Source of the DNA: Phascolarctobacterium sp.
GTDB taxonomy: Bacteria > Bacillota > Negativicutes > Acidaminococcales > Acidaminococcaceae
Direction of reading: 5' to 3'
DNA: 64,000 nt
Assembly: GCF_045124115.1 (NCBI RefSeq)
Contig: NZ_JBGVLF010000041.1
Coordinates: 5,137 to 69,136, forward strand
The notes beneath the pieces were generated by a model, which was not told the origin of the DNA, did not search any database, and worked only from the letters and a program-made list of their open reading frames with translations. The number at the start of each line of letters is the position of its first letter. Position 1 is the stretch's first letter. The translations under genes were made by a program, and so were the position numbers. Shown piece after piece: positions 12,398-54,079 of the stretch.

Positions 12398-12443
12398 TTT
12401 GAAAATTCTTTACATTTAGCTTGTGGCTGGTGGTTGTCGATGT

Positions 12444-12452
12444 TATAATAAA
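12444..12452 (+). promoter_or_regulatory. Extended -10 element upstream of the autotransporter
   Basis: TGTTATAAT. No convincing -35 element. Confidence 0.4.
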
Positions 12453-12556
12453 GTTGAAAGATGCTCGTGGTCAGCGATAGACATGGCGATAAGGGGCTGT
12501 TCATGTGGTGCGTGACTGAGAGCGTAATGTGTTCGAAAAAAAGGAGCGTGTTGTTT

Positions 12557-15056
12557 ATGTTGTTTACAAGGAAGATGAAGTTAACTAAATTGCAAAAGCA
12601 AGTGCTGGGTGGAATGCTGTGCGGAGCTGTGTGCATGGGCATTTTTAATCCGGGGGGGGGCAGAGGCTGCTTATGTAACAGCTAGCATGAAGGTTTTGTC
12701 CGGTAATGCGGAACGTGTTGACGATGAAACAGTTCTGATTGATAGTAATAGTAGCGTTAAGATTAATGCATCCGATGGTACTATAGAATTGAATAGAGGA
12801 GATGCTGTTTTAGGTTCTTGTAATGATGTGAAAATTACTATGAACGATGGTGAATTACAAGTTGTTGCCGGTGGTCTCAATGTTGATGGTGGCGATTCTG
12901 TAACTGGAAATAGCGTTGTAATAAATGGTGGCTCTGTAGGTGTGACAGTTGTCGGTGGTTGTGTATGGGAAGATGGTTCGGCTAATGAAAATAAGGTTAT
13001 AGTTACCAACGGTACAATTGGTATTGAAGAATATGGTTATGTTAGCGGTGGTTATGTGGACGTAGGTGATGATGGATCAGGCAACGCTGGCAAAAACGAA
13101 GTAGCAGTTAGCGGTGGCACGATTAATTGCAATGTTTATGGTGGTTGGATAGATGAGACTTATGTAAATGGTTCTGCCAATGAAAATAAAGTAACGATTA
13201 GTGGCGGTGTGATTGTTGGCAACGAATCTGAAGTGGAAATTTATGGTGGTTATGTAGTCGGAGAGGATGATGGGTACGGTAATACCGTAAATGGTTCTGC
13301 CGATGGCAATATTGTAACTATTAGTGGCGGAACAATTGGTGCTACTGAATCTGAAGTGGAAATTTATGGTGGCAGGGTATATGGTGATGGATTCGGAGAA
13401 GGTCTTATTGTAAATGGCTCTGCAAACGGAAATACTGTGACGATTAGCGGTGGAACAATTGGTGGCGACGAATCTTATGTAGATATTTTTGGTGGTTTTG
13501 CAAGTGGAACTGGTTCCGCCAATAACAATAAAGTGATGGTGAGCGGTGTCAATGTTGGCTCCGAAGGTGTTGTTGGTGGTGGATATGCATACGGAAATGG
13601 TTCTGCAAATGGAAATACAGTAACAATCAGCGGCGAAAACACAGGAATTAGTATAATTGTTGGCGGTTATTCTGAAGAAGGCAATGCTATTAATAATACC
13701 GTTAACCTTTACGCAAATGCTAAGTTTGCAACTCTTTTTGGCGGAATGACCGGCGAAGATGGGACTGGTGATGTTAAGACAGGTAACACTTTAAATGTTA
13801 GGGGTTCTAACTTAACCGTTAAAGGAATAGAGAACTTTGAAAACATCAACTTCTACGTTCCTAGCGATGCTAAAAATGGTGATACAGTTTTGACCGTTAA
13901 GGAAAATGTAAATATCCAAGATACTACCATTAATGCGGGCGTCCAAAAGGGTTCTGAATTAAGTAAGGGTGATAGTTTAACCTTATTAAAGAGTGAAAAA
14001 GAATTAACAGGTACTGCTGCTAGCTTTGGTAAAGTTACTGAAACCGATTTCATAGACTATGATATGAAAATTACCCAAGATGGTAACTCTCTTAAAGGTA
14101 CCATTACCTCTGGAGGCTCTACCAACGAAGTCTCCAAATCCCCTGTGGAAACTATGACTGCTAATTTGGCAATGATCAACATGGGTCTTGACCAAGTAGC
14201 AAGAACCGGTTTTAACAGCGCAGCTGCAGCCATCAAGAGCGAAACTGCACAAGGTGCGGATTCCAGTGATGCGGCAATCTTCGCTAATATTTCCGGTAGC
14301 AATGTAAAAGCAGAATCCGGCTCCCATATTGATATTGATGGCTGGAACTTCAACCTGGGCTTTGCCAAAGAAATCGAAAACAATAGTGGCAAACTGTTGG
14401 TAGCTCCCATTGTTGAATACGGTCATGGCGATTACGACTCCTATTTGGACAACGGAGTACACGCTGACGGTAACAGCAAATATTGGGGCGCAGGCCTGAT
14501 GGCTCGCCAAACTAACAATAATGGCTTCTACTACGAAGGCAGCATTATTGGCGGTAAGAGCGACAGCGATTACAGCTCCTCCGATATTGGTAGCGGTGTA
14601 AGCTACGACAGCGATGCCCTCTTTGTAGCAGCACATCTGGGTGCAGGCAAAGTAGTAGAGATTGACGATGCTAGCAACATCAACTACTATGGTAAATTCT
14701 TCTACACCCATTTGGGTGGTGACGACGTAACCTTGAGCAATGGCGCAGACTACAGTTTCGACAGCAGCGAATCCAAACGCATTATGCTGGGCAGCCGCTG
14801 GACTCGCAGCATCAACGCTAAGAACGGCCTCTACGCAGGTCTTGCATGGCAGTACGAATTTGATGCCGAAGCAAGAGCAACTGTTAAAGGCATAGCTGCT
14901 CCTTCTCCCAGTATGCAGGGTCACACCGGCATTATGGAACTGGGCTGGAAAGTACAGCCTAGCGATGCTCCCATGGACGTAGACCTTGGCTTCATGGGCT
15001 ACACAGGCAAAACCAAAGGCGTGAGCCTCAACCTCAACCTGAATTGGAAATTCTAA
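12557..15056 (+). CDS. Type Va autotransporter, reading frame broken at a G9 tract (phase-variable OFF state or homopolymer error)
   Basis: AAGGAG RBS lies 10 nt before ATG 12557. This opens signal peptide MLFTRKMKLTKLQKQVLGGMLCGAVCMGIFNPGG, which runs into G9 and stops at 12685. The passenger and beta-barrel are in another frame (track ORF 12609-15056), ending ...NLNLNWKF. G8 would fuse the two frames. Confidence 0.8.
12652..12660 (+). repeat. Homopolymeric G9 tract
   Basis: Read directly: c ggggggggg c. Confidence 0.95.
12960..13640 (+). repeat. Tandem ~120-bp (~40-aa) passenger-domain repeats
   Basis: Repeated NGSAN(E/G)N.VTISGG.IG..ES.V.I.GG units. A 26-bp exact repeat GAATCTGAAGTGGAAATTTATGGTGG occurs at 13224 and 13347. 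Confidence 0.8.
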
Positions 15057-15069
15057 CTACATAAAAGCG

Positions 15070-15099
15070 AACCGCCGTGGCGAATGCTGCGGCGGTTTT
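15070..15099 (+). terminator. Intrinsic terminator after the autotransporter
   Basis: AACCGCCG / CGGCGGTT stem followed by TTG. Confidence 0.7.
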
Positions 15100-23130: not shown

Positions 23131-25359
23131 ATGAAAAGGAAAATGTTGAAACGCAGTTTGGCATTGGGAGCTTTAATGGCGTTTGCGATTACCGGGAGCG
23201 CAATGGCAAAGGAAGTTTCTTTTAATGAAGGTGTTTTTCTTGATGCAGACTATTCTGCTTTAGGTAATTATGCCAGATTTAATGAAGCTATTAAGGGAGA
23301 CGATGTAGAGAAAATTGATATAACTAATACCGATACAACTAGGGTGAAAGCTCCTGGTGTAGGCATTTGGGGACGTCATGGAGCAGACAACGAGACTATT
23401 AATATAATTAAGCCTAATGCTGATTTAAATGTTGTTGCTGAATCATATGGTATTGCTTTCGTATCTAATTCAAGCATAAATGTAAAAAATTTAGATGTTA
23501 AATCAAAAGATAATGCAATCCACATTGACAACGGTAAAGCGACAATAGTAGCAAACAATGTTAATTTGCAATCACAAACAAGAGGCATCCTCGTTATGAC
23601 TAGTAATCCTAGTGATGGATTGGCTGGTGATTTAAACTTAACTGTTAAAGAGTCTTTAACAATTAATAGTGATGAGCATAGTTTGCGTGTCGGGACTGGC
23701 AATTTAACTATTGATGCTAGCAATGCGGATGTAACAATCACTTCTAAAAACGAAACTGCTATGAAAACCAGTGGGACTTCTGCAGAGGATGGAAAAATTG
23801 GTATTACTTCCAAAAATTTAACAGTAAATGGTGTAGTTTATGCTGATAAGGGTACTATTGCCTTAGAAGCTACCAATTTGATGAAATTAAGCAGCAATAC
23901 CTACGATGCAAATGCCCTAAAGGTTGATAGTGGTTCTGTTATCAAATTAGCCGGAGCATCTACAATGCAAATTAACGGTGACGTAGAAGCAACAGGTACT
24001 CTTGAGGGTCTGAATTTGGTAGGTAGTGATTCTCATTTGAATGGTAAAATCATTGCCGGTATAGATGCTCCTGTTGCCTTCTCTGATAGCGCATTTTGGA
24101 ATAACAGCGGTGCAAGTCATGTTAGCAAACTTACCGGTACTAACGCTGTGATTAATCAAAAATCTTCTGAAAGTATTATTGCAGGTGAATTTAATGGTGA
24201 TGCTACTGTTACATTCACTAACAGCGGCAAGTTTTTGATGGATAAAGGCGAGGGTACTTTAAGGCTTGCTATGGACACCGAATCCGACCTTGAAAAAATT
24301 GCAGAACATATTGGCAGAAAAGATGCTGATGTTGATGTTAAAGCAACTATCATCAGAGCAGAAGGAATCGTTGAAGGGGAGACTGTTGTAGAAGTTGGCT
24401 ATGATAACAATACCACTAATGTTGTCCTTGATAATGCTGGGGCTACAGCTGACTACTATCTTGGTACCGTTGCAAAAGTAGTTTCTAAGGAAAACACCAC
24501 TAACGCAGGTATTGCGGACATGGCAGCTTTGGGCTTGGGCGCATGGCGCGCAGACAACGACACTCTTATGAAACGTATGGGCGAATTGCGTAATGCTAAC
24601 GGCGAGCAAGGTACTTGGGCTCGTATGACCCGTAGGGAAAGCGAATATGGTGCAGCCAATATGCAGGATAATACCTACAGCGTAGGCTATGACCAAAAAG
24701 TTGCTGATGACTGGACTGTCGGCGCAGCCATTACCTATAAAGATGGCTCCGCAAGCTTTGCGAAAGGCAGTGCAGACATCGAACAAAAAGGTATCGCTTT
24801 CTATGGTACAAAACTGAACGAAAATGGTAGCTATATCGATATCGTTGCTAAGTATACCAATCTGGACAATGACTATACTGTAAATGGTGGCATCGGCAGT
24901 GGCGATTATGATGCTGATGCCTACAGCCTGAGTGCAGAATACGGCAAACGCTTTACTCAAGACAATGGCTTCTGGGTAGAACCTCAAGCAGAGTTGACCT
25001 ATGGTCATGTTGGCAGTGCTTCCTACACTACCGCAGCAGGCAAAGCAGCTCAAGACAGCTTTGATAGCTTCGTTGGCCGCGTAGGCGTATTGCTGGGCAA
25101 AGATGTGGCTGCAGGCAATGTATACGCAAAAGCTTCCTACCTGTATGACTTCGACGGTGAAGCATCCATGAGCTTCAGCGACGGCAAGATTACCAAGACC
25201 GTTGAAGACGATCTCGGTGGCGGTTGGTTCGAAGTTGGCGTTGGTACCAACATCAACTTGAGTAAAGCAACTTACGTATATGCAGACGTAGAGAAGACCT
25301 TCGGTGGCGACGTAGACACCAAATGGCAATGGAATTTGGGCGTACGTTACAGCTTCTAA
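23131..25359 (+). CDS. Type Va autotransporter (intact)
   Basis: Signal peptide MKRKMLKRSLALGALMAFAITGSAMA. Beta-helix-like passenger rich in N/T/G/S. C-terminal beta-barrel ends WQWNLGVRYSF. Confidence 0.85.
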   Translation: MKRKMLKRSLALGALMAFAITGSAMAKEVSFNEGVFLDADYSALGNYARFNEAIKGDDVEKIDITNTDTTRVKAPGVGIWGRHGADNETINIIKPNADLNVVAESYGIAFVSNSSINVKNLDVKSKDNAIHIDNGKATIVANNVNLQSQTRGILVMTSNPSDGLAGDLNLTVKESLTINSDEHSLRVGTGNLTIDASNADVTITSKNETAMKTSGTSAEDGKIGITSKNLTVNGVVYADKGTIALEATNLMKLSSNTYDANALKVDSGSVIKLAGASTMQINGDVEATGTLEGLNLVGSDSHLNGKIIAGIDAPVAFSDSAFWNNSGASHVSKLTGTNAVINQKSSESIIAGEFNGDATVTFTNSGKFLMDKGEGTLRLAMDTESDLEKIAEHIGRKDADVDVKATIIRAEGIVEGETVVEVGYDNNTTNVVLDNAGATADYYLGTVAKVVSKENTTNAGIADMAALGLGAWRADNDTLMKRMGELRNANGEQGTWARMTRRESEYGAANMQDNTYSVGYDQKVADDWTVGAAITYKDGSASFAKGSADIEQKGIAFYGTKLNENGSYIDIVAKYTNLDNDYTVNGGIGSGDYDADAYSLSAEYGKRFTQDNGFWVEPQAELTYGHVGSASYTTAAGKAAQDSFDSFVGRVGVLLGKDVAAGNVYAKASYLYDFDGEASMSFSDGKITKTVEDDLGGGWFEVGVGTNINLSKATYVYADVEKTFGGDVDTKWQWNLGVRYSF

Positions 25360-28810: not shown

Positions 28811-29087
28811 AATAAAATACCTCCTAATTTTTGCAGGAACAAATTGTATAAGGCATAATTCTACACAAGTCAGTATTTATCCTGCTAGCTGATTCTTTCC
28901 TGAAGTGTTTATTAGTAGTAAATATTCCTTATAAAATAAAATTTCACTAAATGATAAAAATTTAAAATTGGTGTTGCTTTTTTCTTGTAATTATTGAGAA
29001 TATATGCTAATATATGGTTATTATCAGTGCATGCTCAGTTGCTAGAGCAGTGCATTAAATAGCTGTATAGGAAATGAGGTTGTGTAT

Positions 29088-31016
29088 ATGAAGAAGAGTG
29101 AAATGCTGCGTAACGCAGTGCTGCTGTCTTTATTAGTGGGTGCTACCACCGGTTTCAGCATGGCTGCACAAGCAGAAGAAGTTGCAGATTCCATGGAATT
29201 TGCTATGGATGAATATGTTGTTACTGCAAGCCGTACCCAAACTGCTAAAGTGGATACCCCTGCCAATGTAACTGTTATTGATGCGGAAAAAATTGAAAGC
29301 GGACGTTATCAAGATGTGTCTGAAGTGCTGAAAGATGTACCGGGCGCGCAGGTAATTGATAATGGTTCAGGTGCCACTGTAAAATCTGTTATTTTAAATG
29401 GTGATGATCGTGTGCTTGTAATGGTTGATGGTCGTCGCATGAATTTAGATATGGGTACTACCAATGGCAACTCTGGCTTTGATATGCGTTTTTTACCTGA
29501 TGTAAGTTTAATTGAACGCATCGAAGTAGTTAAAGGACATGGTGGTGCTTTATATGGTTCTGATGCAGTTGGTGGCGTAATTAATATTATCACTAAAAAG
29601 GCAGATCGTAGTTTTGGTAAAATTGGCATGGGCTTTGGTTCTGGTCAATATCGTGATATGAAAGCAATTTACTCCTTTAAAGAAGGTAAAACAGGAGTAG
29701 ATGTTGCTGCTTCTAAAGAGAAGCAGGGCTACTATAAATACAAAGATGTTGTTACTAAATCTACAAATAGATGGCCTGGTAGCTCTAAATATGAAAATGA
29801 GAATGTAGCATTAACAGTAAGACAAGATATTACCGACACTAAAAATTTGGAGGTTGGTTTCCAACATTCTAAAACCGATGGTACAAGTTATGCTTTCATG
29901 TCCAATACTCCGGGATATGTTCATAATATGAATCTAAAATCAGATAGATTCCATGCTAAGTATGCATGGACCGTGAATGATACTGATGATGGCTACTTCC
30001 AAATTTATCATAATGAATTTGAAAGTGATGACTATTGTTTGAGTGATGTACCAAGTAACTTGAACGAAAAAACCATTGGCATGGATGTTCAACAAAAAGT
30101 TACTTTGAGTGACAATAATAGCATTGTTGTCGGTTCTTCCTATAGACACACGAAAGCAAAGAATAGCGGCACTTATGGGATGGCTCCGTATGAGGACAAT
30201 GTAGATAATGTTGCTGTATTTGTTAGTGATATTTGGGAGTTTGCTCCTTCCTGGTCTTTGAATACCGGTGCACGTTATGATCATCACAGTGAAGCAGGTG
30301 GTGAAACTACATTAAGTGCTGGATTGAACAAGAAATTTGATGAAAACAGTCACGCTTATGTAAACTGGGGACAAGTATTTAGAGCTCCTACTACAGAAGA
30401 TGTTTATTATGCTGGTAATGGAGTGTCTAGCAAAGATTTGGAAGCAGAAACTGGTGATACTTGGACTATTGGTTATGGTACTAAAATTGCAGACAAAACT
30501 GACGTAAACATCAGCTACTTCCAAAGTGATATTGATGATGCTATTGATTGGTACAACGATAAAGGTGATTATACTGTTAGAAATGTATCAGAACAGAAAA
30601 AACGTGGCGTTGAGTTAAGCGTAAATCACGAAATTGATGACAATTGGGATTTAAATGCTTCTTATACCTATGTTCGTGTTCGCAATAGCTATAACAATTC
30701 TGGTTTTGTTAGAGAAACTAATTACATTCCTAATATCTATAGATTAGGTGTTCGTTATCATGATGAAAAATGGAATGCTGATGTGACCATGCGTGCTGGA
30801 ACTGGAGCTGATAAAACTTCCTTTGTTGATAATAGTTATGTAACTGTAGATATGGCAGTTAACTATAAAGCAACTACTGCGTGGACATTGTATGCTAAGG
30901 GTTATAACTTGTTCAACAGAGCTTATGCAGAACGTGGTGGTGTAAATTATTTAGGCACCTATGATTACCCTGCACAATCCCGTCGCTTCATTGTTGGTGC
31001 AGAGTATAGCTTCTAA
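29088..31016 (+). CDS. TonB-dependent outer-membrane receptor (substrate unknown)
   Basis: Signal peptide, plug DEYVVTASRTQTAKVDTPANVTVI, C-terminal FIVGAEYSF. No riboswitch is visible upstream. Confidence 0.85.
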   Translation: MKKSEMLRNAVLLSLLVGATTGFSMAAQAEEVADSMEFAMDEYVVTASRTQTAKVDTPANVTVIDAEKIESGRYQDVSEVLKDVPGAQVIDNGSGATVKSVILNGDDRVLVMVDGRRMNLDMGTTNGNSGFDMRFLPDVSLIERIEVVKGHGGALYGSDAVGGVINIITKKADRSFGKIGMGFGSGQYRDMKAIYSFKEGKTGVDVAASKEKQGYYKYKDVVTKSTNRWPGSSKYENENVALTVRQDITDTKNLEVGFQHSKTDGTSYAFMSNTPGYVHNMNLKSDRFHAKYAWTVNDTDDGYFQIYHNEFESDDYCLSDVPSNLNEKTIGMDVQQKVTLSDNNSIVVGSSYRHTKAKNSGTYGMAPYEDNVDNVAVFVSDIWEFAPSWSLNTGARYDHHSEAGGETTLSAGLNKKFDENSHAYVNWGQVFRAPTTEDVYYAGNGVSSKDLEAETGDTWTIGYGTKIADKTDVNISYFQSDIDDAIDWYNDKGDYTVRNVSEQKKRGVELSVNHEIDDNWDLNASYTYVRVRNSYNNSGFVRETNYIPNIYRLGVRYHDEKWNADVTMRAGTGADKTSFVDNSYVTVDMAVNYKATTAWTLYAKGYNLFNRAYAERGGVNYLGTYDYPAQSRRFIVGAEYSF

Positions 31017-34949: not shown

Positions 34950-35115
34950 TTTAAAATCGGGTTCTTGGGTAATTTATGTTGGAAGCAGGTGCGATTCCTG
35001 CACGATCCCGTCGCTGTAATAGGGAGTGAGTCTGCGGTATGCCACTGGCGCAAGCTGGGAAGGCGCGGAGGAGCGATGATCTTAAGTCAGAAGACCTGCC
35101 CAGGGATAGAAGCTA
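34950..35115 (+). promoter_or_regulatory. Cobalamin riboswitch (canonical class)
   Basis: GGAAGCAGGTGCGATTCCTGCACGATCCCGTCGCTGTAA core. GCCACTGG...GGGAAGGC motif. B12 box AGTCAGAAGACCTGCC (35085-35100). Confidence 0.88.
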
Positions 35116-35182
35116 CTGCTGCGCGAGACGGTAAGGGCGGAAATAGGTATCAGTACTTTTAGGAGAAGTGTACCTGTTTTTG

Positions 35183-35221: not shown

Positions 35222-35282
35222 TTTGCAAATAAGAGCGCTGTAAAACGGGGTGCGGTGTTAGCAAAGAATAGGAGTGGATGTT

Positions 35283-37292
35283 ATGCAAAAAGTAATGTTT
35301 AAAGGTGCATTGTTAGCAGCAATGATGACAGGTTCTGTGTTGGGCAGTCAATGCGTTTGGGCAGCAGAGACAGTGGGAGAATTTACCCTCGATCCCATGG
35401 TTGTAACTGCATCCAGAATGGAGAAACGCGACTTGGATACACCTGCGGCAGTCGATGTTATTACTAGGGAACAAGTTGAACGCATTGGTGGTGCAAGTGC
35501 TTTTGAAGTATTGCGTCAATCTTTAGGCGTTAGTGTGACTAGCCAAGGTCCTAATGGTGTATCCTATGGCTCCATGACCAGTGAAGCTACGATTCGTGGT
35601 GTTGAACGCGGCACTTTGGTTTTGGTAGATGGTATGCCTCTTAACCAAGATGGCAAATACAATTTGGAAGACATTCCTGCGGAAATGATTGAAAAGATTG
35701 AGATTGTTCGCAGTGGTGGTTCCGTTCTCTACGGTAGTGAAGCTAGTGGCGGTGTTATCAACATTATTACTAAACGCGGACCTATTAATAAAGTAAAGAT
35801 TTCTGCAGGTAATTTGGGGAGAGAAAACTATAGCTTAGTAGTTGGTGACAAAAATTTCGGCGCAACTGCTTATTATGAAAATCGCGGCACTATAAATCGC
35901 ACATCTACTACAGCTCTTTCCGGTATGGCAGGGAAAAAGACAAAAAAATACTATCGCTATGACAGCGGTGATCGTAAAGGTATTCGCTGGCACTATGATA
36001 TTAATGATAAGCTGACTTTTACTCATCAATATTCAGAGAATGAAAACGTCGTTTCTCAGATTAATCCCGAAGGCAAATACAAAAATGGACTGTATCAACG
36101 CAATACTTATATTGATACGGACAATAACTTCGCATTGAATCTGGACGATAAGCAAGGATTTAAGGCTCATTTATCCTATGGCACCCAAGAAAAGCAATAT
36201 GATAAAGATAGCTATAGTGCAAAAGGGGCTCTGACAAGGCAAACACCTTATAGTTGGCGCAAGGGACACAACACCAATCTTGATCTGCAAAAGAGCTTTA
36301 ATATGGGCACTAACAAGCTTTTGGTGGGTGCTACTTATAAGAATGAAAATATGGATATTCTTGGCGACAAAATAGGCACTACTGAATCCGTTAAAGGTCG
36401 TGCAACTTATGATCGCGATATATATTCTGTATATGCATCTTATGATTGGGCGCTTACGGATAAAGATAATCTTATTTTTAATGCTCGCGAGACTTGGGCA
36501 AAAAATTGCAACGCTGATTACCAAACCTTTAACTTTGATTCTGAACAAAAGGACATGAATCAATTTACGCCGGAGGTACAATATATCAAAAAATTGACGG
36601 AAGATAGCTCCGTATACGCTAAATTTGGTAAATCCTTCCGCCTGCCCGATTTGACCCGTATTTATGGTAGTGGCAATATTCGTCCGCAAATGGAGCTTTA
36701 TCCTGAAAAAGGCACGCATTATGAATTAGGCTACAAGTTAAACGAAAACAATAGAGCGTGGCGTTTAGCTTTGTATAAGTATGATATTGAAGACACCATT
36801 ACTAAAGTGGCGGGTACTTCTGCTGCTGAAGGTAATTTGGAATATACTAACGTTGATACTAAAAGTGTAGGTGTGGAATTGTCCTGCGATATCCAGCATA
36901 GTGATTTAGTTAGCAGCTCTTGGGGAGTTTCTTACTCTAATCCTGAAAAGCGTACCGATGCAGGTCATTTTGAAGATTATGGCAATAGATTGCAATTAAC
37001 TGGTTCTGTAGATTATCACGAAGAAAAATTTGGGGCTTCTGCAGTCTTTAACTACCTTGGTAAACGACTTGATGATGATGTGGATGCTTATGCTGGCAAA
37101 AAGGTTAAGCCTGCACTGTATACTGATGTGCATTTCTCTTATGCTCCGGAAAAAAACCACAAGGTATTCCTGCATGTAAATAATATCTTTGATCGTGATG
37201 ATTTTACTACTAATACCTCTCCCAGCGACGAGCATCTTGCTTATTTGTCCGTCGGTCGCAACTTTATGCTTGGCTATGAATACAGCTTCTGA
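35283..37292 (+). CDS. btuB: TonB-dependent receptor, BtuB-like (cobalamin/corrinoid uptake inferred from the riboswitch)
   Basis: Signal peptide, plug DPMVVTASRMEKRDLDTPAAVDVIT, C-terminal FMLGYEYSF. ATG lies 8 nt after AGGAG. Confidence 0.82.
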   Translation: MQKVMFKGALLAAMMTGSVLGSQCVWAAETVGEFTLDPMVVTASRMEKRDLDTPAAVDVITREQVERIGGASAFEVLRQSLGVSVTSQGPNGVSYGSMTSEATIRGVERGTLVLVDGMPLNQDGKYNLEDIPAEMIEKIEIVRSGGSVLYGSEASGGVINIITKRGPINKVKISAGNLGRENYSLVVGDKNFGATAYYENRGTINRTSTTALSGMAGKKTKKYYRYDSGDRKGIRWHYDINDKLTFTHQYSENENVVSQINPEGKYKNGLYQRNTYIDTDNNFALNLDDKQGFKAHLSYGTQEKQYDKDSYSAKGALTRQTPYSWRKGHNTNLDLQKSFNMGTNKLLVGATYKNENMDILGDKIGTTESVKGRATYDRDIYSVYASYDWALTDKDNLIFNARETWAKNCNADYQTFNFDSEQKDMNQFTPEVQYIKKLTEDSSVYAKFGKSFRLPDLTRIYGSGNIRPQMELYPEKGTHYELGYKLNENNRAWRLALYKYDIEDTITKVAGTSAAEGNLEYTNVDTKSVGVELSCDIQHSDLVSSSWGVSYSNPEKRTDAGHFEDYGNRLQLTGSVDYHEEKFGASAVFNYLGKRLDDDVDAYAGKKVKPALYTDVHFSYAPEKNHKVFLHVNNIFDRDDFTTNTSPSDEHLAYLSVGRNFMLGYEYSF

Positions 37293-51822: not shown

Positions 51823-53121
51823 ATGGAAATAAAAAGAGATTTTTACTTAGAGCAATTAATTAAGCGCAAGGGCAATGGTCTGATCAAAATAATCACAGGT
51901 ATTCGTCGTTGTGGTAAATCATATTTGTTAAATACTTTGTTCTACAACCATCTTTTGGAGCAAGGCGTAACTGCTGACCACATTCTCCGTTTTGCTTTCG
52001 ATTCTGCTGATGATCTGCATCTTATAGGCGAAAGCTTAATCAGTATGCAAAAAGAAAAAAGAGGTGTTGATCCGGAAAAATTTGTTGAATATATTCAGTC
52101 ACAAGTAAAGGATGATGATACTTACTATCTGCTTTTGGACGAGATTCAGATGTTAGACTGTTTTGAAGCTGTTTTAAACGGCTATTTACGGATAAGCAAT
52201 CTAGACGTTTTCGTTACCGGTAGTAATGCTAAGCTGTTATCTAAGGATGTGGCTACGGAGTTTGCCGGCCGTGGTGATGAAATCCGTATGTATCCTTTAA
52301 GTTTTGCAGAGTTTATGTCCGTTTATCAAGGCGACAAGTATATGGGGTTGTCTGAGTATATGCTTTATGGTGGTATTCCCCTTGTAGTGTTGCGGGAAGA
52401 TGCTAAGGATAAAATTGCTTTGCTGCAGAATCTTTTTAGTGAAATATATATTAGAGATATCAAAATACGCAATAAGGTTAAAAACATTGGTGAATTAGAA
52501 GATCTGTTAAATATGCTGTCTTCTGCTATCGGTTCTTTGACTAATTTCGAGAAGCTGCGCAATACTTTTAGAAGCATAAAGAAGTCTAAGATTACGGCTG
52601 CGACTATTAAGAAGTATTTGGATTATCTGGAAGACTCTTTTTTGGTGGAGGCTGCTGTACGATATGATATCAAGGGCAAGGCATATATTGAAACTCCGAA
52701 GAAGTTTTATTTCTCTGATCTTGGCTTGCGTAATGCGAGAATTAATTTTAGGCAGTTTGAACAGACTCATTCCATGGAGAATGTGATTTATAATGAGCTG
52801 CGTATGCGTGGCTATAGTGTGGATGTGGGCATTGTGCCGGTGGCGGAGAAGGATGCGGATGGCAATGTAAAGCGCAAACAGTTGGAGGTTGATTTCGTGT
52901 GCAATTTGGGCTCGACTAGGTGTTATATCCAATCTGCCTATGCACTTCCGGATGAGGCCAAGCGGATGCAGGAGATACGTCCATTTAGACGAATAGATGA
53001 TTCTTTTAAGAAGGTTGTAGTTACGAAGGATTTAGTGGTTCCTTTTTATGATGATTACGGCATTCTTACTGTGAGCATTTATGATTTTTTACTTAAGCCC
53101 GATTTACTAGAGGCAATTTAA
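51823..53121 (+). CDS. AAA+ ATPase with DUF4143-type C-terminal domain
   Basis: Walker A GIRRCGKSYLL and Walker B LLLDEIQ. C-terminal half is typical of the AAA_14/DUF4143 family, by eye. Confidence 0.78.
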   Translation: MEIKRDFYLEQLIKRKGNGLIKIITGIRRCGKSYLLNTLFYNHLLEQGVTADHILRFAFDSADDLHLIGESLISMQKEKRGVDPEKFVEYIQSQVKDDDTYYLLLDEIQMLDCFEAVLNGYLRISNLDVFVTGSNAKLLSKDVATEFAGRGDEIRMYPLSFAEFMSVYQGDKYMGLSEYMLYGGIPLVVLREDAKDKIALLQNLFSEIYIRDIKIRNKVKNIGELEDLLNMLSSAIGSLTNFEKLRNTFRSIKKSKITAATIKKYLDYLEDSFLVEAAVRYDIKGKAYIETPKKFYFSDLGLRNARINFRQFEQTHSMENVIYNELRMRGYSVDVGIVPVAEKDADGNVKRKQLEVDFVCNLGSTRCYIQSAYALPDEAKRMQEIRPFRRIDDSFKKVVVTKDLVVPFYDDYGILTVSIYDFLLKPDLLEAI

Positions 53122-53335: not shown

Positions 53336-53364
53336 TTGTATGGGGGGGGCAAAGGTGTTATAAT
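53336..53364 (+). promoter_or_regulatory. Candidate promoter of the polysaccharide locus with a G8 tract in the spacer
   Basis: TTGTAT (weak -35), 17-nt spacer starting with G8 (53342-53349), then TGTTATAAT extended -10 (53356-53364). Confidence 0.5.
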
Positions 53365-53452: not shown

Positions 53453-54079
53453 ATGAGCAATTTTTGCGGCAAGCTAGCGAAGACGGTGTTTGATTACAGT
53501 TTAACGGCAGTAGGTACGGTGTGTATCAGTCCGCTGTTAGTTTATATTGCCTATAGAATAAAAAAAGAGGATCCGGGTCCGGTGTTTTTTGCTCATGAGC
53601 GTATTGGCAAGGATGGCAAGCCTTTTCCTTGCTATAAGTTCCGGAGCATGGTTGTAAATTCCCAGGAGATGCTAGAAAAATATTTGGCAGAAAATTCCGA
53701 CGCCCGTGCGGAGTGGGAACGTGATTTCAAGTTGAAGGATGATCCGCGGATTACGCCTATTGGCAAGGTGTTGCGCAGGACAAGTTTGGATGAGCTGCCG
53801 CAGATTTTTAATGTGCTGCGGGGCGAGATGAGCCTTGTAGGTCCGCGTCCTGTGATTCAGGAGGAGTTGGACAAGTATTATGGCGAGACTGCGAAGCTGT
53901 ACGCCAGTGTGAAGCCTGGGATTACGGGTTTGTGGCAGGTGAGCGGACGCAGCGATTTGGGGTATGACCAGCGTGTGGCGCTGGATGCGGAGTATATCAA
54001 GCACAGAAGCTTTTGGGGCGATGTGGTGATTTTGTGGAAGACTATTGGCGTGGTGCTGATGAAGAAAGGTGCGTATTAA
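53453..54079 (+). CDS. Initiating undecaprenyl-phosphate sugar phosphotransferase (small PGT, bacterial sugar transferase family)
   Basis: SLDELPQIFNVLRGEMSLVGPRP and KPGITGLWQVSGRS. Confidence 0.9.
   Translation: MSNFCGKLAKTVFDYSLTAVGTVCISPLLVYIAYRIKKEDPGPVFFAHERIGKDGKPFPCYKFRSMVVNSQEMLEKYLAENSDARAEWERDFKLKDDPRITPIGKVLRRTSLDELPQIFNVLRGEMSLVGPRPVIQEELDKYYGETAKLYASVKPGITGLWQVSGRSDLGYDQRVALDAEYIKHRSFWGDVVILWKTIGVVLMKKGAY
54055..54077 (+). repeat. 23-bp direct repeat, left copy (3' end of the sugar transferase gene)
   Basis: GCTGATGAAGAAAGGTGCGTATT is identical to 56184-56206. Confidence 0.9.

Follow-up and report, generated by a model that had tools for sequence, protein, structure and literature searches.

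Simple-sequence contingency loci are textbook features of Neisseria, Haemophilus, Campylobacter and Helicobacter. In Neisseria opa, Helicobacter outer membrane protein genes and Haemophilus lav, repeats in the signal-peptide region switch translation ON or OFF, and multi-gene families of this kind produce combinatorial surface variation. Their repeat units are pentamers, dinucleotides or tetranucleotides, and their protein families differ from the one described here. The subject of this analysis is a run of nine G nucleotides (G9) between the signal peptide and the passenger domain of an autotransporter gene. The gene lies in a 64,000-nt stretch of contig NZ_JBGVLF010000041.1 (assembly GCF_045124115.1, positions 5,137–69,136, forward strand), which is called the window and whose own coordinates are used below. 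The host is Phascolarctobacterium sp. (Negativicutes, Acidaminococcaceae), a diderm Firmicute, as had been predicted from the letters of the sequence.

The closest described systems are known from Neisseria, Bifidobacterium and Campylobacter. In meningococci, the signal-sequence DNA of autB contains repeats, and about 1% of isolates have the gene ON (PMC5118866). In autB and autA of N. meningitidis, as in the window gene, the repeat number sets the frame of an autotransporter. They differ in having the tetranucleotide repeat AAGC and in belonging to a proteobacterial pathogen, and their switching and expression were shown experimentally. In Bifidobacterium breve UCC2003, the pilin genes bbr_0113 and bbr_1889 contain a G-tract between the open reading frame (ORF) for the Sec signal and that for the mature protein, and the reference genome is OFF (PMC9187656). 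In-frame lengths of these tracts form a minority, which becomes enriched in vivo, and tracts recur in the homologous clusters of other species (PMC9187656). These sortase-dependent pilins resemble the window gene in that an intragenic G-tract of a gut commensal splits the signal from the mature ORF. In contrast, B. breve is a monoderm actinobacterium, the product is an LPXTG pilin, the tracts are G10–G12, and their heterogeneity was measured by maximum-depth sequencing. Among Campylobacter autotransporter genes, capD has an intragenic and capC an upstream poly-G tract, ranging from G4 to G10 or more among genomes (PMC7168839). As in the window, poly-G is tied to autotransporters and the tract position is conserved within the family. 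The hosts, however, are Epsilonproteobacteria, and the authors there blame gene decay over the tract for most inactivation.

The mechanism and the layout are thus already known from autB/autA, the B. breve pilins and Campylobacter capD. The window gene is fairly probably a simple-sequence contingency locus of Phascolarctobacterium sp., a slipped-strand switch that has been sampled in two OFF states. It would place a known device, poly-G at the end of an autotransporter signal peptide, in an abundant genus of gut commensals. A search of the full-text literature found nothing on phase variation by simple sequence repeats in autotransporters of Negativicutes, Veillonella or Phascolarctobacterium.

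Reading frames around the G tract and the encoded protein

The ribosome-binding site AAGGAG (12541–12546, plus strand) is located 10 nt before ATG 12557. This ATG opens the signal-peptide ORF (12557–12685, plus strand), which in the G9 state has 42 codons plus TAG and translates as MLFTRKMKLTKLQKQVLGGMLCGAVCMGIFNPGGGRGCLCNS*, with the stop codon at 12683–12685. It consists of the n-region MLFTRKMKLTKLQKQ and the h-region VLGGMLCGAVCMGIF, followed by NPGG and out-of-frame read-through. The poly-G tract (12652–12660, plus strand) occupies codons 32–35. The sole long ORF extends from GTG 12609 to 15056 (815 codons), in a different frame from the signal peptide. Neither this GTG nor the internal ATG (12687) has a Shine-Dalgarno sequence at a usable distance. 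The mature-protein reading frame (12660–15056, plus strand) runs from the Ala codon GCA of a signal-peptidase-like site, AEA/A, to TAA, and 797 codons are open downstream of the tract. The original prediction had named the ribosome-binding site, the ATG, the signal peptide, the tract, the stop and the displaced 815-codon ORF with its unsupported GTG, and every one of them is exact in the sequence.

As the sequence stands, the passenger polypeptide has no N-terminal Sec signal peptide; G9 is out of frame and the gene is OFF, as predicted. The prediction that G8 or G11 would join the two frames was borne out by in-silico editing of the tract. Removal of one G gives an 832-aa product (...GIFNPGGAEAAYV... 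/ ...GIFNPGGAEAAYVTASMKV...), and addition of two gives an 833-aa product. In the series from G7 to G11, ORFs of 864/865 aa appear at G8 and G11, and ORFs of 71–74 aa at the other lengths. G7, G9 and G10 are all out of frame and meet a stop 5–8 codons past the tract.

After the 1-nt correction, the N-terminus has an n-region with positive charge, an h-region of 15 residues and the AEA/A site. When it is aligned with the signal peptides of 19 homologues, 20 sequences in all, no gap is needed. Five residues, L12, K14, V16, P32 and A37, are invariant in all 20 sequences and located on either side of the tract. The tract codons P-G-G sit where the homologues have P-S-V/P, ahead of a conserved (A/V)-E-A. 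Because the restored N-terminus aligns in this way and the invariant residues straddle the tract, the G8/G11 frame is, judging from the alignment, the ancestral frame.

In the annotation, the product is a 'hypothetical protein' of 789 aa (WP_405381413.1). There are more than 1300 homologues of the restored protein; the full-length ones are 35–39% identical, and many have the autotransporter domain PF03797. The restored protein itself matches nothing in Pfam even at E<=1, PF03797 being missed, and a sequence-profile search of PDB was likewise negative. However, 9 of the 20 aligned homologues match PF03797 (best E 1.9e-21). These align to the window protein over the full length, with an overall identity of 40–43%, and invariant columns are dense in the barrel region.

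In the AlphaFold model (mean pLDDT 82.9), a beta-helix passenger is followed by a helix of 41 residues and a barrel of 12 strands. The predicted beta-helical passenger (12804–14111, plus strand) is based on the strands of the model at residues 40–475 of the 789-aa product and on the homologue alignment, and it contains repeat units G-N-x-V-x-I-S-G-G (GN(T/K)V(T)ISGG). It is followed by an alpha-helical linker (residues 481–521; 14127–14249, plus strand) ahead of the C-terminal beta-barrel translocator (14274–15047, plus strand), whose 12 strands span residues 530–787 and which ends with ...NLNWKF. The top Foldseek matches in PDB are the translocators of EspP, BrkA, EstA, Hbp, AIDA-I and NalP (E 1e-11 to 1e-8), including EspP 3slt at E=1.4e-11, BrkA 3qq2 with a TM score of 0.82–0.84, and NalP 1uyo. 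Based on this modelled architecture and the matches to EspP, BrkA and NalP, the restored protein is assigned to the type Va (classical) autotransporters. The autotransporter named in the original prediction is thereby recovered, with passenger, linker helix and 12-strand barrel all present in the predicted structure.

Tract length among public copies

Seventeen further contigs with the gene were collected by look-ups of the products from the internal ATG and the GTG and of their cluster mates. The tract is G7 in 15 contigs (L001–L012 and L050–L052), which originate from ENA, NCBI and Logan assemblies and from several run-accession series. It is G9 in three sequences, the window and two independent Logan assemblies (L013 and L014), and both of the latter are 100% identical to the window, G9 included. 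The G7 contig L002, from the NCBI metagenome-assembled genome (MAG) GCA_045129095.1, shows 0 mismatches to the window in 8372 nt and a single 2-nt gap. Likewise, L003 (G7) shows 0 mismatches in 5511 nt, and the tract is the sole difference. The same Bac_transf protein sequence is encoded in SRR25030046 (G7) and SRR25030064 (G9) and in no other contig on record, and the DNA upstream of it is identical in both. For these reasons, the two are probably one strain with different tract lengths in different samples.

The tract is therefore neither of one in-frame length, as would be expected from an assembly error, nor fixed at G9, as in a plain pseudogene: 15 contigs have one length and three sequences the other, on otherwise identical backgrounds. 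The same data bear on a sequencing or assembly artefact, in which the true tract would be in frame and G9 a homopolymer miscall. Homopolymers are error-prone on some platforms, and Illumina reads can misbehave at G-tracts (PMC9187656). Nonetheless, two independent Logan assemblies have G9 too, and 15 contigs of several sources agree on G7; on this ground assembly error is rejected. Besides, the two lengths are 2 nt apart with neither in frame, and no other gene in the ORF map of the window appears frameshifted. These facts make an artefact the least probable explanation, with a very small chance of being right.

If the locus is a slipped-strand switch, the poly-G would encode Gly-Gly at the signal-peptide end of a type Va autotransporter, and mispairing during replication would alter the tract length. 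G8 or G11 would yield a secreted precursor of 832 or 833 aa, with predicted cleavage after A-E-A. G7, G9 and G10 would yield only a signal-peptide fragment of 39–42 aa, leaving the passenger and the barrel without an export signal. The window carries the G9 OFF allele, and most public copies the G7 OFF allele. It may be inferred that cells switch often and reversibly, that those in the ON state are a minority or transient, and that OFF prevails because the sampled niche selects against expression. Homopolymers mutate mostly by single-unit slips, and so the change between G7 and G9 would most simply pass through G8, which is the ON length.

Several observations weigh against this reading. All 18 sequences (15 G7 and three G9) are OFF, and neither G8 nor G11 is seen among them; both ON and OFF lengths of the window gene, which a slipped-strand locus should present, have thus not been found together. 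The only close protein cluster (90%) has nine members of 506–826 aa, whose starts are MKV in the G7 frame or GTG in the G9 frame, and the homology search returned no other cluster above 58% identity. Since this sole close cluster holds OFF forms only, a collection of about 15 billion proteins lacks the in-frame form of 832, 833 or 869 aa. Only two lengths are observed, and G9 is limited to the SRR250300xx series and the window, so that as little as one mutational event is needed. G7 is at the lower edge of the tracts normally counted as hypermutable. In the homologous gene type represented by L018, all five contigs found have a G8 tract, four of them added by a second scan, which indicates that such tracts are not wildly unstable at the consensus level. 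The original prediction of a phase-variable locus accordingly stands with respect to the OFF allele and the length polymorphism, whereas an ON length is missing from the 18 sequences.

The OFF-only sampling is the chief weakness of the phase-variation reading, yet it is not fatal: autB and the B. breve pilins are mostly OFF too, and the simplest path between G7 and G9 leads through G8. By analogy with autB, such sampling would indicate that expression is disfavored by selection in the sampled niche.

The same OFF-only sampling also favors a young pseudogene. According to this explanation, the tract changed to G7 in a recent ancestor of a nearly clonal population and later drifted from G7 to G9, and the ORF is intact merely for lack of time to decay. 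That all sequences are OFF and the protein collection holds no ON form agrees with it, and G7 is common to both the 789-aa and 826-aa alleles of the gene. The intact ORF carries little weight, because the window and L004 differ at only 2 of 789 aligned codons (one synonymous, one not); with two differing codons, dN/dS is likewise uninformative on purifying selection. A parallel can be drawn with the Campylobacter poly-G autotransporter genes, which are reported to become pseudogenes rather than to phase-vary (PMC7168839). On the other side, a 2-nt change with 0 single-nucleotide differences in 8.4 kb implies tract mutability well above the substitution rate, and the simplest path of that change leads through the ON length. 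Together with the evidence from homologues given below, this leaves a young pseudogene the main rival, though an unlikely one.

Besides the poly-G, the main polymorphism of the gene is a 111-bp (37-aa) in-frame passenger repeat near 13455, after residue 256 of the 789-aa product. It is present in most public copies (the 826-aa allele, such as L004) and absent in the window (the 789-aa allele). A gapped-pattern scan of JGI metagenomes for the tract of the window gave 0 matches, and no record was returned for IspG, which was looked up by exact match to serve as an anchor gene. At its contig end (positions 1–20), just upstream of the tract, L001 has three positions unlike all other copies. Heterogeneity close to the tract may have left an assembly-graph tip here.

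G tracts in homologous genes and in the genomic background

A scan of one genome per species covered 35 autotransporter loci from Negativicutes MAGs and isolates. Five of the six G/C runs of at least 8 nt in these loci fall in the signal-peptide-coding region of an autotransporter. The phase of each homologue tract was checked by in-silico editing. L018 (G8), L035 (G12) and the further homologue L060 (P0051; G9) are in frame and ON, while L026 (G9), L038 (G8) and L044 (G9) are OFF; L035 and L044 are in the same MAG. In these six other autotransporter genes, from Negativicutes MAGs and metagenome contigs, the tract is within precursor codons 22–35, and three are ON and three OFF. Both phases occur among rumen and gut Selenomonadales and Acidaminococcaceae. 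In L059 (P0048), the same codons are interrupted (ACT GGG GGT GGA). A C8 run in L034 was considered as a signal-peptide tract and discarded, as no link to the signal peptide of an autotransporter could be made.

The tract codons of the homologues are T-G-G in the h-region, or (T/P/M)-G-G right before the cleavage region. Since the tracts are at non-identical codons, comparison of their positions suggests that they originated independently, at a site tolerating extra glycines. The OFF copy L026, from a sheep-rumen Selenomonadaceae, has a second interruption 88 codons past its tract (701–975). Either true pseudogenization or a mis-assembly may account for this.

Composition alone leaves a G run of this length not very rare. 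Under a first-order Markov model, 0.49 runs of G8 or longer would be expected in the window, and dinucleotide shuffles contain on average 0.76 matches to GGGGGGGG, with 8 of 100 shuffles reaching the three observed. The distribution of run lengths is more telling. The window (1–64000) contains 13, 0, 0 and 2 runs of G5, G6, G7 and G8 or longer, against 29.7, 7.1, 1.7 and 0.49 expected under the same model. G5 runs are thus about halved, and G6 and G7 combined are absent against 8.8 expected. The longest C run in the 64 kb is at most 5. The run-length spectrum is bimodal, and both runs of G8 or longer are at genes for surface structures. Because G6 and G7 are absent yet two longer runs exist, the genome avoids G/C homopolymers save at two long tracts. 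Similarly, 219 kb of related loci contain 127, 26 and 1 G/C runs of 5, 6 and 7 nt, and then six runs of 8–12 nt. The case that the tract is more than chance is based on its position at the junction, its length polymorphism on identical backgrounds, and its recurrence in homologues.

These facts bear on the young pseudogene as well. To place CCG GGG GGG where homologues encode P-S-V/P takes several substitutions, in a genome without G6 or G7 runs. Six other genes have comparable tracts at this functional site, and three of these tracts are in frame. A pseudogene leaves unexplained why tracts were built repeatedly at the signal-peptide site against the avoidance of G runs. The second disruption of L026, 88 codons after its tract, is one point from the homologues in its favor.

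Slippage of RNA polymerase or the ribosome should also be considered. Here the gene would be kept one nucleotide out of frame at G7 and G9, and the tract would act as an attenuator that allows rare, low-level display. In the ribosomal version, a -1 shift would occur on G7 (0-frame CCG GGG GGG, heptamer G_GGG_GGG) and a +1 shift on G9. Both observed alleles are indeed one nucleotide off an in-frame length, a -1 shift on G_GGG_GGG in the G7 allele would, as read from the sequence, yield exactly ...NPGGAEAAY, and a mechanism of this kind would reveal itself by the complete lack of in-frame alleles among public sequences. However, G7 and G9 need opposite shift directions, and GGG-type slippery sites are poor shifters. 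Downstream of the tract, no significant stimulatory RNA structure was found: the z-score is -1.36, and among 200 shuffled sequences, 15 folded equally well. The out-of-frame length is not conserved, because homologues carry in-frame G8, G9 and G12. Of what is expected at a programmed frameshift or slippage site, there is thus the motif in the G7 allele, without a downstream structure and with homologue tracts in frame. Slippage is accordingly quite improbable.

The slipped-strand switch is consistent with a tract in the 5' coding region that sets the frame, whose length differs between identical genomes and which recurs in relatives in both phases. If it is true, diderm Firmicutes vary their outer-membrane surface stochastically, and autotransporter genes called 'hypothetical' or 'frameshifted' in MAGs conceal switchable genes. 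Strain-level metagenomics could then read the ON or OFF state from reads, for example against IgA or phage pressure.

Flanking sequences and other features of the window

The genes adjoining the autotransporter gene are ispG (PF04551) and proS. A putative sigma-70 promoter (12421–12449, plus strand) was found by eye, with -35 TTGTGG at 12421–12426, a 17-nt spacer and the extended -10 TGTTATAAT at 12441–12449. From the sequence, an extended -10 promoter at this place, about 110 nt upstream of the ATG, is plausible. The consensus promoter scan does not list the site, because its -35 matches at 3 of 6 positions. A strong intrinsic terminator-like hairpin (15069–15098, plus strand; 13 pairs followed by a T run) is located 13 nt past the stop codon, and the autotransporter gene looks monocistronic from its flanks.

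No RNA element or tRNA was found in the 1-kb gap upstream of the autotransporter gene. In this gap, between ispG and the autotransporter gene, the minus strand carries a perfect sigma-70 consensus promoter (TTGACA, 18 nt, TATAAT; 12 of 12 matches), and about 60 nt after it, a terminator-like hairpin (11786–11758). This promoter and hairpin pair (11877–11755, minus strand), which has no Rfam or tRNA match, could specify a small RNA of about 85 nt.

The second long G run of the window is G8 at 53342–53349. It is located within 53336–53364, between a -35-like TTGTAT and the extended -10 TGTTATAAT with a 17-nt spacer, about 100 nt upstream of the Bac_transf (PF02397) gene (53453–54079), which heads an apparent surface-polysaccharide locus. 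Judging from its position, this run is a candidate phase or 'volume' switch in a promoter spacer. The spacer tract is G8 also in the only two other contigs found (L053 and L054). These independent Logan contigs both begin at the base equal to 53148 of the window, 305 nt upstream of the Bac_transf gene. The shared end suggests a repeat or a strain-variable boundary by the AAA_14/DUF4143 gene (51823–53121).

A second autotransporter gene (23131–25359; 742 aa, PF03797 E=6e-40) is without a long homopolymer. Most of its cluster mates have 727 aa, and the start call varies between assemblies. A TonB-dependent receptor gene is located at 29082–31016, and a cobalamin riboswitch (RF00174, 94 bits) at 34950–35117, upstream of the ORF 35274–37292.

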